A stretch of 30,286 nt of DNA from a virus (taxonomy: Duplodnaviria > Heunggongvirae > Uroviricota > Caudoviricetes): IMG/VR virus record IMGVR_UViG_2778261087_000001, positions 1-30,286 of that record. One strand, 5' to 3'. Shown in pieces: positions 6,084 through 28,214 of this stretch (its first letter is position 1; each line of letters starts with the position of its first letter). Position numbers and translations under genes: made by a program. The notes beneath the pieces are model-generated. The model was not told where the DNA came from. It saw nothing but the letters and a program-made list of their open reading frames with translations, and made no database searches.

Positions 6084-6150
6084 TATTACCTTAAAAACCA
6101 CATATGGATAGATAACCCATAAATACGAACAGATATTACCTTTCAGGTGA
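6084..6150 (+). promoter_or_regulatory. bipartite intergenic motif, copy B (TATTACC-N7-CCACATATGGAT ... TATTACCTTTCAGGTGA)
   Basis: TATTACC at 6084-6090, CCACATATGG at 6098-6107, TATTACCTTTCAGGTGA at 6134-6150; about 75 bp upstream of the plus-strand ORF at 6227. Confidence 0.5.
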
Positions 6151-6226
6151 TTCGCAAAACGTGCTGGATAGCAAACAAATTATTTGATACTGTATATTTA
6201 TACAGTTATTGCATGGAGAAGATAAG

Positions 6227-6484
6227 ATGCAGCAGTATCACTATCCACTGGAAGACGGATTTACCGAAAGGATTCACACGCCGGGAGGCGTCAGGTCACT
6301 GGTGGAGGGATCGCACTTGATGAAATTACTACGGGATCTCGATAAGGATGGATTTAATGTCGATGGCCCACTTGCCGAACTGACTGCACTGATTAACTAC
6401 GTCACCAGCTCACAGATGTCTATGCAGGATCTGCAAACACATCTCGACTATTGTGCCGAACAATTACGAAAACAAACCAGATAA
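6227..6484 (+). CDS. hypothetical small protein, paralog of the Bro-N protein C-terminal domain
   Basis: Track ORF starts at TTG 6209; ATG 6227 has GGAG 8 nt upstream. Shares the pattern H-x-P-G-GV...L-E-S-LM-LL...DG-V-G-AELT...QTH with residues about 160-228 of the downstream Bro-N protein. Confidence 0.5.
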   Translation: MQQYHYPLEDGFTERIHTPGGVRSLVEGSHLMKLLRDLDKDGFNVDGPLAELTALINYVTSSQMSMQDLQTHLDYCAEQLRKQTR

Positions 6485-6796
6485 GGTTTGCAATTACCAA
6501 CTGGAGTGCTTATATTTACCTTTGCGGTAAATTTACATCGCACTCCTCTTGTGCCATAGTAATCGGGCACTGGCAAAATCCAGTGCCGGGATTGGCGTCC
6601 CGGGTTACTACAGAGGCACATATGCCGCATAAGCGGTTTTTTTATGTGTAAAGCGCACCTATTCTATGGTGGGCTGTGTGGGGGCACCGAAAGGTGCGCC
6701 GGGTCCTTTGTAGCCGGTTACGCCAACCCTGTACAGTTCACCACCAACCGATTGGCGTCGGTAGTGGTGATTAACCTAACTACAAAGGTGATCACT

Positions 6797-7483
6797 ATGA
6801 CTGCTAACGTAACCCCATCTGTTTTTCATTTTGAATCAGAAGCAACCATTCGAGCCATTGTTATTGATGGAAATCCTTGGTTTGTTGCCAAAGACGTTAT
6901 TAAAGCTCTTCAACTGACAAACCCCACTATGTCAATAAAATCTCTTGATGATGATGAAAGGGCTAAATTTAACTTAGGCCGTCAAGGCGAAACCAATATT
7001 ATCAACGAGTCAGGCCTCTACACACTGATCCTCCGCTGCCGCGACGCAGTGACACCAGGCACTATCCCCTACCGCTTTCGTAAATGGGTTACAGGTGAGG
7101 TTCTTCCTCAGATCCGCCGCACCGGAAGTTACATTAAAAACTCGCTCCCGCAGGAAGAACGCATAAAGATGGTTGCCGACCAGGTAGCCAGCGCCACAGC
7201 ATCAGCAGTGATGCAGGCAATGAAGGTAGAGAACAAAACCTACAGCGCCCCACTGAAGCCCGGCTACCGCAGCCTGATTCATTCGCCGTCTGGTGTTCTT
7301 GGACTGACGGAGAACTCACTGCTGATGAATCTGCTGAACCAGTTACAGGACGACGGGCATGACGTATCGGGCGCGGCGGCGGAGCTGACCACCATGTTCT
7401 GCTACATCGTCGGTGTGAGCAAATGCCTGCGTGATATCCAGACGCACGCGGAGTACATCAGCGACAAAGCAGGATTCTTCTGA
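6797..7483 (+). CDS. Bro-N domain protein (antirepressor-like)
   Basis: From ATG 6797 (AAGGTG 6 nt upstream): VFHFE...IRAIVIDGNPWFVAKDVIKAL...SLDDDERAKF is a typical Bro-N signature; the track extension upstream to 6644 has no RBS and is rejected. Confidence 0.7.
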   Translation: MTANVTPSVFHFESEATIRAIVIDGNPWFVAKDVIKALQLTNPTMSIKSLDDDERAKFNLGRQGETNIINESGLYTLILRCRDAVTPGTIPYRFRKWVTGEVLPQIRRTGSYIKNSLPQEERIKMVADQVASATASAVMQAMKVENKTYSAPLKPGYRSLIHSPSGVLGLTENSLLMNLLNQLQDDGHDVSGAAAELTTMFCYIVGVSKCLRDIQTHAEYISDKAGFF

Positions 7484-7491
7484 CGGGCGGC

Positions 7492-7510
7492 GGCACAGGG
7501 ATGTGCCTTT
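7492..7510 (+). terminator. terminator-like hairpin after the Bro-N gene
   Basis: GGCACA-GGGA-TGTGCC followed by TTTAAAA; short T tract, so weak. Confidence 0.35.
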
Positions 7511-7547
7511 AAAATAATCATTGGCGATGTGATGTAGATTCGCGTAA

Positions 7548-7564
7548 TATTACCTTAAAGGTAA
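7548..7564 (+). promoter_or_regulatory. TATTACCTTAAAGGTAA motif, copy D, abutting the RBS
   Basis: Near-perfect palindrome TTACCTTAAAGGTAA immediately 5' of AAGGAGG (7564-7570) and ATG 7577. Confidence 0.45.
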
Positions 7565-7576
7565 AGGAGGCGCGAT

Positions 7577-7744
7577 ATGACAGCGTTGAAAAATCGTACT
7601 CAGCACAATGAACAAGCCAAGCAATGCTGGGATGTCATTGGAAAAGTTATGCTTGGTCGCGCAAGCAAAGAGCGCGACAAGGATATGGTTTACCAGACAG
7701 GAACATCTTTTAGCGACTTCAAGGCGGCATTTCGCTCCAAATAG
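7577..7744 (+). CDS. hypothetical small basic protein (55 aa)
   Basis: Below the 60-aa track cutoff; ATG with consensus RBS AAGGAGG 6 nt upstream; stop 20 nt before the next gene start, suggesting a two-gene operon. Confidence 0.5.
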   Translation: MTALKNRTQHNEQAKQCWDVIGKVMLGRASKERDKDMVYQTGTSFSDFKAAFRSK

Positions 7745-25399: not shown

Positions 25400-25476
25400 G
25401 TGGCATTAGCTCAGTCGGACAGAGCAACCGCCTTCTAAGCGGTTGGTCGCAGGTTCGAATCCTGCATGCCACGCCA
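25400..25476 (+). tRNA. tRNA-Arg (anticodon TCT)
   Basis: 77 nt; 7-bp acceptor stem GTGGCAT/ATGCCAC, D arm GCTC...GAGC, anticodon stem ACCGC/GCGGT with loop CTTCTAA, T arm GCAGG-TTCGAAT-CCTGC, discriminator G, CCA end; acceptor stem differs from host argU as recalled. Confidence 0.85.
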
Positions 25477-27621: not shown

Positions 27622-28214
27622 TGATTGCCATCCTGACGTTCTTTCAGTCTCTTCCTGGCTGCCGCTATGCGATCAGCAATTGTCACATTCACATTAACAT
27701 CCAGGCGTTCTTTGAATGCGTTGACGTCGACGTGCTTACCAATCAGTTCGAGGTTCTTCACCTTGTCAGGCCATTTAATTTTTTTGAGGATTGTCTCTAT
27801 CGAATCCTCGTTCATGTTCATGATGGTCGATGACAGATCAAAGCCACTAAGCGTAGTGCGCCAGATTTTCGGCCACTCGCGGATTGGCTTAAGGCTCCCA
27901 TCGTCGTTGAGGATGTCGATCACGTCCATCTGGTCGATCTCCACCAGACGCATGAGAACGTAATCAGCACTGACGCGCATTCGTTTGTTGCGCTCCTCCA
28001 TCAGCTCGGCAATCCGTTTTTGAATGCGTTCATCGCGCATCATGACACTGGCTTTAACTGCCGCTGTATTTGGGGAGAATCCTGCGTTAATCGCTGCCTG
28101 AGTCTGGTTTTCAGGCGTTTTGATGTATGACTGGCAATAAGCCTCCTGCATTGCTGTTAGTGGCTTAAATTGCGTTGATTTGCGTTTATAGGTTTTAGGT
28201 TCAGCAGGCATCAT
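27618..28214 (-). CDS. terminase small subunit
   Basis: Basic helical protein immediately upstream of the large terminase; track ORF extends to TTG 28292, but ATG 28214 lies after an upstream terminator and direct repeats and is preferred. Confidence 0.6.
   Translation of the reverse strand: MMPAEPKTYKRKSTQFKPLTAMQEAYCQSYIKTPENQTQAAINAGFSPNTAAVKASVMMRDERIQKRIAELMEERNKRMRVSADYVLMRLVEIDQMDVIDILNDDGSLKPIREWPKIWRTTLSGFDLSSTIMNMNEDSIETILKKIKWPDKVKNLELIGKHVDVNAFKERLDVNVNVTIADRIAAARKRLKERQDGNQ

Follow-up and report, generated by a model that had tools for sequence, protein, structure and literature searches.

An IsrK- and C4-family RNA cassette as the probable regulatory leader of a Bro-N antirepressor gene in an epsilon15/phiV10-like phage

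The spacer in front of the Bro-N gene and its phage

Upstream of the gene for a Bro-N protein, the 30,286-nt stretch of viral DNA analysed here (IMG/VR record IMGVR_UViG_2778261087_000001; referred to below as the window) carries a spacer of about 310 bp that is rich in inverted repeats, and the question raised by this locus is what such a spacer does in front of such a gene. An initial annotation, made from the sequence alone, had proposed a small RNA or a regulated leader of the Bro-N gene. Both proposals proved apt. The segment 6567-6643 is an IsrK-family RNA with a predicted promoter of its own and a terminator, and the read-through leader that follows holds a C4-family RNA, one loop of which is complementary to the Shine-Dalgarno region of the Bro-N gene (Table 1). 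We consider it very probable that the spacer serves as regulatory leader to an anti-immunity operon of the immI type, a kind represented by P1 c4 and Gifsy-1 IsrK. A switch of this sort is well supported here and is of an ordinary type among temperate phages. Its elements follow each other in the order operator, promoter, a1, b1, terminator, C4 with b' and a', a2, b2 and the ATG of the Bro-N gene.

The window derives from an epsilon15/phiV10-like temperate podophage of the genus Uetakevirus; several Escherichia coli Uetakeviruses and prophage fragments match it at 93-96% identity over the stretch 6100-7600. In phiV10, the equivalent module has the tail-fibre gene on one side and the virion structural genes on the other. 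As in immI-type operons, the regulated product is an antirepressor: the protein encoded downstream of the spacer matches Pfam Bro-N (E = 5.8e-20) and the anti-repressor Ant family of PHROG (phrog_130; E = 2.6e-55). Functional support comes by analogy from phage vB_EcoP_ZX5, whose DNA is ~95% identical to the window across the module; overexpression of its Bro-N anti-repressor (ORF4, at the same locus) lowered lysogen counts from 10^9 to 10^6, an approximately 1000-fold drop (PMC9782041). A tRNA or tmRNA in the spacer was rejected, as ARAGORN detects only a tRNA-Arg (25400-25476) in the window.

Table 1. Features of the Bro-N leader region, numbered from the first nucleotide of the window.
Feature	Position	Strand	Description
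Small upstream gene	6227-6484		85 aa; flanks the spacer on its 5' side
Spacer	6485-6796		Between the small gene and the Bro-N gene
Outer inverted repeat GGAGTGC...GCACTCC	6503-6547	.	Encloses the operator and the -35 element
Operator-type palindrome TTACC-N5-GGTAA	6516-6530	.	Centre ~44 nt upstream of the predicted transcription start; abuts the -35 hexamer
Sigma-70 promoter (predicted) TTTACA-17-(TG)C-CATAGT	6532-6560	+	For the IsrK/C4/Bro-N transcript; predicted start ~6567
IsrK-family small RNA	6567-6643	+	Rfam RF01394, full length (model positions 1-77)
a1, GATTGGCGTC	6590-6599	+	Loop of IsrK hairpin 2
b1, CTACAGAGG	6608-6616	+	Complementary to the C4 b' loop, with one G.U pair
Helix GCACAU/AUGUGU around the terminator	6616-6649	+	GCGCAU/AUGCGU in relatives
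Weak intrinsic terminator	6624-6643	+	5-bp stem, 4-nt loop, U run; 3' end of IsrK
C4-family antisense RNA	6662-6748	+	Rfam RF01695, full length (model positions 1-87)
b', CCUUUGUAG	6705-6713	+	Loop of C4 hairpin 2
a', ACGCCAA	6720-6726	+	Single-stranded stretch 3' of C4 hairpin 2
a2, second copy of GATTGGCGTC	6750-6759	+	2 nt past the C4 model end
Local hairpin GGUGAU.../...AUCAC	6766-6796	+	5' part of b2 in the loop; Shine-Dalgarno region partly sequestered
b2, CTACAAAGG	6780-6788	+	Perfect 9-nt complement of b' (6705-6713)
Bro-N/Ant-type antirepressor gene (regulated gene)	6797-7483	+	228 aa; ATG at 6797

Operator, promoter and RNAs of the leader

The inverted repeats recorded in the initial annotation are all present: GGAGTGC (6503-6509) and GCACTCC (6541-6547) around TTTACC (6515-6520) and GGTAAA (6526-6531), GGCACTGG (6566-6573) with CCAGTGCC (6580-6587), and CCGGGA (6586-6591) with TCCCGG (6598-6603). 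The initial annotation took them together as one RNA structure; the palindrome 6515-6531 is better explained as a site in the DNA. Judged from its distribution, the innermost palindrome TTACC-N5-GGTAA is most likely the operator of the phage repressor. With up to one mismatch, it occurs at 7 sites in the window (0.44 expected) and at 14 sites in phiV10 (0.63 expected), most of the latter being intergenic. The HTH repressor gene PhiV10p40 is flanked by two phiV10 copies on either side, and further copies are positioned upstream of the integrase gene, of the small gene and of the isrK promoter. In relatives, the half-sites of the palindrome are conserved while its spacer varies. The P1 operator Oc4 at the promoter P2c4 has the same geometry as the putative operator in the window, with its centre near -44 and abutting the -35 element. 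Two copies in the window, at 28214 and 28232, had been considered as its immunity region; this was rejected, since the region corresponds to the start of the phiV10 small-terminase gene (sites 87 and 105).

Alternatively, the larger palindrome 6503-6547 could act in RNA, as a hairpin at which the mRNA of the small upstream gene ends or by which it is stabilised, and not as an operator bound by a protein. It starts 19 nt past the stop codon of that gene, and its fold (6496-6553; -19.4 kcal/mol) is far better than that of dinucleotide-shuffled sequences (z = -5.55; 0 of 200 shuffles as good), the comparison used for all fold energies given here. Moreover, only the copy at the isrK promoter has the outer arms GGAGTGC/GCACTCC, which are absent from the other operator copies. 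The phiV10 counterpart of the outer repeat is a perfect 18-bp/18-bp palindrome, and the Klebsiella phage L008 keeps, by eye, a different complementary pair (ATGGGTT/AACCCAT) at this place. Against an exclusive role in the mRNA stand the 14 mostly intergenic copies of the core in phiV10, which include both sides of the repressor gene, the lack of a U tract after the hairpin, and three loci (L003, L004 and L007) in which no complementary pair of outer arms is seen by eye at this position. We therefore regard a hairpin in place of an operator as unlikely, albeit not markedly so. The two roles are not mutually exclusive, and the mRNA of the small gene may in addition carry the outer repeat as its 3' hairpin.

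The predicted promoter next to the operator keeps its place across the loci compared below: the distance from the end of its -10 hexamer to the start of the isrK model is 6 nt in 15 of the 16 and 8 nt in the remaining one. The P1 promoter at this conserved position coincides with the annotated promoter P1c4/P51b.

A scan of the whole window with Rfam assigns 74.7 bits to the isrK match (gathering score 50). The RNA has the two 5' hairpins and the intrinsic terminator of its family, its hairpins covary (helices 1-3), and its fold (6567-6643) reaches -27.5 kcal/mol (z = -2.45). The core TTGGCGT (6592-6598) of the a1 element is complementary to the a' element of C4. The initial annotation had correctly noted the 5-bp GC stem (6624-6637) and the T run reaching to 6643, and had misplaced them at the end of the spacer; they lie in its middle. 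The terminator hairpin is conserved in all 16 loci. The helix enclosing it retains five to six of its six pairs in 11 of the 16 aligned loci, the others being complementary by eye and misaligned, and a compensatory change from G-C to A-U has taken place in the window. The read-through RNA may use this helix for processing or refolding.

In a permissive scan, the family c4-a1b1 (RF03163; "a1, b1 targets of C4 antisense RNA") matches the segment 6554-6606 with 44.1 bits (E = 1.9e-9), slightly short of the gathering score (46.7) that its counterparts in P1 and Gifsy-1 exceed with 51.0 and 48.1 bits. The P1 a1/b1 leader also matches isrK (35 bits; E = 8.5e-6), down to a terminator-like hairpin with a U run. 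Because the P1 leader matches both models and Gifsy-1 has isrK followed by C4, we take IsrK, c4-a1b1 and the P1 a1/b1 leader, as far as sequence can tell, to be one and the same element.

The largest structure of the spacer, the 87-nt C4 fold (6662-6748) with its 17-bp outer stem, is the key regulator and had been overlooked initially, as had the 10-nt direct repeat GATTGGCGTC at 6590 and 6750 and the 9-nt complement between CCTTTGTAG (6705) and CTACAAAGG (6780). The C4 match scores 78.5 bits in the scan of the whole window (gathering score 45), and the fold amounts to -40.3 kcal/mol (z = -3.30). It consists of a long outer stem and two enclosed hairpins, as is typical of the family. The corresponding helices 4-6 are 99.3%, 91.9% and 88.8% paired in the alignment, and 16 of their 27 pairs have changed on both sides. 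The acceptor-like stem is followed by CCA at 6744-6746, and a mature C4 at about 6668-6745 is predicted by analogy with the annotated 77-nt C4 of P1. A promoter scan found no separate C4 promoter between 6620 and 6662.

The a' and b' elements are exposed in the C4 fold and have complementary partners downstream: a' (6720-6726) pairs with a2 (6752-6758) over 7 bp, and the b' loop with b2. The latter, whose end is 9 nt before the Bro-N ATG, overlaps the Shine-Dalgarno sequence (AAGG) of that gene. The upstream target copies a1 and b1 on the same transcript are also present, as in immI-type operons. In support of the local hairpin at 6766-6796, the sequence GGTGGTGAT is nearly invariant in the alignment. 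When the window was scanned for duplex energy with a' plus b', the a1/b1 region of isrK was the best site besides the complementary strand of C4 itself (-25.8 kcal/mol), and the a2/b2 site did not figure in the list of the eight best sites, in which unrelated segments reach -22.6 to -24.3 kcal/mol. Such a scan of a single genome is not discriminating, and the case therefore rests on the exact repeats, their positions and their covariation.

Covariation and rival readings of the spacer

The isrK-C4 stretch was found by blastn in 249 phage records, and a search of 5,426 complete E. coli genomes at megablast sensitivity detected the element in 488 of them. For comparison, we assembled 13 diverse phage loci by blastn similarity (from Uetakeviruses, Klebsiella, Hafnia, Yersinia and Moraxella phages, an Stx phage and APSE-7) and added P1 and Gifsy-1, which resulted in an alignment of 16 sequences. 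In all 13 of these other phage loci isrK is followed by C4, and in every locus the downstream start codon is found 45-54 nt past the end of C4, whichever gene it opens (Bro-N, Ant, Rha, Ash or icd).

Structure prediction and covariation in homologs had been named in the initial annotation as the check on its proposal, and by both measures the spacer behaves as a structured RNA: the folds beat their shuffles, and the helices covary over the 16 loci. The combined structure (isrK hairpins, terminator, the three C4 helices and the a':a2 helix) is 95.3% paired over all cells of the alignment, with double changes in 31 of 51 pairs; none of 500 shuffles was as good, and controls in which the structure was slid along the alignment were 36-43% paired. 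The a':a2 helix (helix 7) is paired in 95.5% of cells and shows two-sided changes in 5 of its 7 pairs, and the a1:a' helix reaches the same 95.5%, again with 5 of 7 pairs compensatory.

Indels have put the b columns of the MAFFT alignment out of register, and the b sites were therefore tested free of register through duplex energies and permutations. In 15 of the 16 loci, the cognate b2 offers a stretch of 7-12 nt that is perfectly complementary to the b' loop; measured from the ATG, b2 has its 3' end at -7 to -14 in 14 of the 16. Mean duplex energies are -12.0 kcal/mol for cognate versus -6.8 kcal/mol for permuted combinations at b2, and -11.6 versus -5.2 kcal/mol at b1; the cognate b' pairing was equalled by none of 20,000 permutations. 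In phiV10, a one-base deletion is common to b', b1 and b2 (CCTTTTAG / CTAAAAGG / CTAAAAGG; the window has CCTTTGTAG / CTACAGAGG / CTACAAAGG). Among close Uetakeviruses, two a-types (ACGCCAA and AGACCAA) and two b-types (CCTTTGTAG and CCACTTAG) occur in all four combinations, as seen in the window, Tyrion, HEMP4 and phiv142-3, a pattern that suggests a modular exchange of specificity.

These data also bear on the possibility that the spacer encodes a peptide, either as a leader ORF of the orf45 type coupled to Bro-N or as an N-terminal extension of Bro-N from the ATG at 6644. An ORF from 6644 to 7483 is indeed in frame with Bro-N, an "Ash family protein" is annotated over the region in some records, and in Gifsy-1 orf45 is translated and is required for full activation of anrP (PMC4825925). 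However, the indels in the alignment are not multiples of three and, together with the compensatory pair changes, fit selection on RNA, not on protein. The ORF opened by the AUG at the 5' end of C4 has 15 codons in the window and 3 to 37 codons, or a chance fusion, in other loci; the ORF after the T run varies from 2 to 45 codons in relatives. In addition, 6644 is not preceded by a Shine-Dalgarno sequence, and a Pfam search with the ORF fragments of the spacer finds nothing. The initial view that the spacer holds no credible ORF is thus borne out, with the frames from the in-frame ATG 6644 and from AUG 6666 not being conserved in relatives, and we consider a coding function extremely improbable.

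A second alternative would retain the RNA structures and dispense with trans-acting RNAs: the read-through RNA would be a purely cis-acting leader that switches between two folds, hiding or exposing the ribosome-binding site of the Bro-N gene without any trans-acting C4 or IsrK. The predicted fold of lowest energy of the read-through RNA (6567-6815; z = -4.87) does pair a1/b1 with a'/b' intramolecularly, and the local hairpin already sequesters part of the Shine-Dalgarno region (6749-6815; z = -3.6). The same cis fold is known from Gifsy-1 as the experimentally supported "structure A", and the IsrK read-through RNA in this form is translationally silent (PMC4825925). In the window, however, the cis fold leaves a2/b2 and the Shine-Dalgarno sequence uncovered by C4, and hence would be the active form. 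Furthermore, the pairings a'-a2 and b'-b2 covary as strongly as a1-a' and b1-b'. The C4 of P1 is annotated as a separate 77-nt RNA and is described as trans-acting (PMC8546580), and in Gifsy-1 the processed RNA STnc1160 has been detected and IsrK provided in trans raises anrP translation 139-fold (PMC4825925). A leader that works in cis only is for these reasons very unlikely, and the immI-type leader with a C4 antisense RNA remains by far the better account of the locus.

Known immunity systems and a proposed mechanism

The system itself has already been described, namely as P1 c4, as Gifsy-1 IsrK and in the Rfam families RF01695, RF01394 and RF03163. P1 c4 is said to date from 1990 and IsrK from 2008/2016, and the P1/P7 immI operon with its c4 antisense RNA, icd and ant1/ant2 was reportedly worked out by Citron and Schuster in 1990 and 1992. 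In P1, C4 is processed by RNase P. According to its GenBank annotation (NC_005856), P1 immI has the order Oc4 (a C1 operator), P2c4 and P1c4, a1, b1, c4 (77 nt), a2, b2, icd and ant1/ant2. The locus in the window resembles it in this order of elements, in a -10 element 6 nt before the a1/b1 leader, in the location of a1 in a hairpin loop, and in a C4 of the same Rfam family. The start codon follows C4 after 47 nt in P1 and 48 nt in the window, and b2 lies over the ribosome-binding site in both. In P1, that site belongs to icd, which encodes a 73-aa cell-division inhibitor and to which ant is translationally coupled, whereas the window has no icd-like leader gene: the 228-aa Bro-N protein itself starts after b2, with no intervening ORF. 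The a and b sequences of P1 (CUGUCAA and CACUAAC) also differ from those of the window, the operator sequence and the repressor are unrelated, and the phage is an integrating podovirus while P1 is a plasmid prophage.

With the Salmonella prophage Gifsy-1 (Hershko-Shalev et al., 2016), the window has in common IsrK, the promoter position, the terminator, a C4-family RNA, the a1:a' pairing and a downstream antirepressor gene. In Gifsy-1, we find a C4-family RNA 25 nt after isrK, followed by GATTGGCGTC and then by ATCACCG directly before the GGAGG of anrP; this RNA is the element named orf45/STnc1160 in the original work (PMC4825925). The pairs of IsrK G28 and G31 with C162 and C159 have been experimentally validated (PMC4825925). 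They fall inside the a1:a' helix, where their equivalents in the window, in the numbering of the sequence, are G6594:C6724 and G6597:C6721. The two loci differ in the reading frame that overlaps C4. In Gifsy-1, orf45 extends over 45 codons from the conserved AUG at the 5' end of C4 (the reported start at nt 107 was reproduced), and its stop overlaps the ATG of anrP. In the window, the same AUG (6666) opens only 15 codons (6666-6710) and ends with a TAG (6711-6713) in the b' loop, 86 nt before the ATG. With an ORF this short, the coupling of orf45 to the antirepressor cannot apply here. Gifsy-1 further differs by the antQ gene and the isrJ RNA, neither of which is present nearby in the window; no isrJ-like RNA was found downstream of Bro-N at E <= 1.

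APSE phages of Hamiltonella (LR794146 and others) have isrK, C4, putative a'/b' and a downstream Bro-N gene annotated in the same order as in the window; they differ in their a and b types (AUGCGAA and CCUGUUUAG), in the phage backbone and in the upstream genes. The CI RNA of satellite phage P4, with seqA/seqC, obeys the same logic, in that a processed leader RNA pairs up- and downstream of itself. P4 CI acts mainly via premature transcription termination of the replication genes. It does not cover the ribosome-binding site of an antirepressor gene, and the best Rfam matches of the RNAs in the window are C4 and isrK. A parallel between their locus and P4 CI was drawn by the authors of the Gifsy-1 study (PMC4825925). 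In immI of P22 (sar, Arc/Mnt and ant), as proposed for the window, a small RNA blocks translation of an antirepressor, and the operon lies among late genes in both; sar, however, is a cis-antisense RNA from the opposite strand, while the regulator in the window is in tandem, on the same strand, and uses two short, split complementarities.

By homology with these systems, the following course of events can be proposed. Transcription would start near 6567 from the promoter 6532-6560, which the phage repressor probably controls, and read-through of the weak terminator would yield the C4 and Bro-N transcript. From this RNA, C4 would be cut as a stable RNA of ~78 nt, with its tRNA-like outer stem followed by CCA. 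C4 would then bind a2/b2 and block ribosome binding, so that the antirepressor stays silent in the lysogen; occlusion of the Shine-Dalgarno sequence would be helped by the local hairpin, whose loop holds the 5' part of b2. Direct occlusion of this sequence by b' is probably the sole conserved route of translational control. The IsrK RNA, together with a1/b1 in cis, would compete for a'/b' and thus act as a decoy. An excess of IsrK, brought about by a burst of promoter activity or by loss of the repressor, would release Bro-N translation, and the antirepressor might then inactivate the prophage repressor. Differing a and b types would make this control specific for the individual phage, as in the heteroimmunity of P1 and P7.

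More tentatively, we suggest that serving as a C4 decoy might be the general role of the element known as IsrK, c4-a1b1 or the P1 a1/b1 leader, and that the cassette might sense the rate of transcription without a leader peptide. Each transcription start would provide one decoy, while C4 would arise from read-through only; at low promoter activity a stable C4 pool would silence the antirepressor, and a burst of transcription would outrun this pool. Should this reading be true, the orf45 requirement of Gifsy-1 would be a lineage-specific addition. In any event, the dependence on orf45 that is part of the published Gifsy-1 mechanism is not conserved.

The literatures on IsrK and on C4 would thus describe the same cassette, and a 2025 review gives the two RNAs as unrelated entries. 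The phiV10 record has only "a terminator" and a similarity note over the region, and the eight E. coli genome records listed carry, under the match, an annotation for the BRO-N protein alone and none for the RNA genes. The cassette would explain how the Bro-N antirepressor is silenced in epsilon15/phiV10-like prophages, and the locus predicts prophage heteroimmunity at the level of RNA. If the a and b specificities reassort independently, many RNA-defined immunity types could exist. As a compact pair of antisense RNA and decoy, the module is potentially reprogrammable. Changing b2 from CTACAAAGG to CTAGAAAGG would spare the Shine-Dalgarno sequence.

The isrK-C4 cassette and its regulated genes

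In all 16 loci the regulated gene has its start codon 45-54 nt downstream of the 3' end of C4, and the genes found in this position (Bro-N, Ant, Rha, Ash and icd) are unrelated to one another. The isrK-C4 RNA module acts as a portable cassette, joined to one effector gene or another. Since a2 and b2 directly precede the Shine-Dalgarno sequence of anrP in Gifsy-1 (see the table), direct C4-type occlusion of this gene also looks possible, a mode of control that the consulted text of the published Gifsy-1 model (isrK-orf45-anrP; PMC4825925) does not mention.

The IsrK terminator lies between the two strands of a conserved helix, whose formation requires read-through RNA. The helix reads GCACAU/AUGUGU in the window and GCGCAU/AUGCGU in most relatives, while GACAA/TTGTC takes this place in Stx P27 and Gifsy-1.

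Residues 68-161 of an annotated 227-aa ORF of Hafnia phage yong2 (L010, 988-1668) match Pfam Phage_ASH (PF10554), and these residues are translated isrK, C4 and a2/b2 (DNA 1189-1471). In vB_EcoP_ZX5 (L017, 1097-1210) the label "ash family protein" is attached to a 37-aa ORF over C4. The conserved isrK/C4 RNA locus, in translation, may account for at least part of the Ash protein family.

The small gene and the dispersed palindrome

The CTGT-N8-ACAG core of the LexA box is kept at the same place in phiV10, Tyrion, HEMP4 and phiv142-3, and, with one mismatch, in a Klebsiella phage. Over its C-terminal ~80 residues, the Bro-N antirepressor shares 40% identity (E = 6e-16) with the 85-aa product of the small gene. 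Taken together, the LexA box and this likeness suggest that the small gene encodes an SOS-inducible mini-antirepressor adjoining the RNA-controlled Bro-N antirepressor, with parallels in Tum of phage 186 and GfoA of Gifsy.

TTACC-N5-GGTAA is present upstream of the LexA-boxed gene as well. Copies of this palindrome, 14 in phiV10, are spread over the genome and are for the most part intergenic; one directly covers the ribosome-binding site of a 55-aa gene (7577-7744). Jointly, these sites have the look of a dispersed repressor regulon and recall the many C1 operators of P1.

Positions of the mapped features
Feature	Position	Strand	Remarks
LexA (SOS) box	window 6188-6207		TACTGTATATTTATACAGTT; near-consensus; 20 nt upstream of small gene 6227-6484
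Terminator-bracketing helix	window 6616-6621 with 6644-6649		
TTACC-N5-GGTAA	window 4146, 6136, 6516, 7550, 25063, 28214, 28232		
Gifsy-1 a2 and b2	L016 (Gifsy-1) 34076-34130	-	a2, GATTGGCGTC; b2, ATCACCG
tRNA-Arg	window 25400-25476	+	anticodon TCT; ARAGORN and Rfam both
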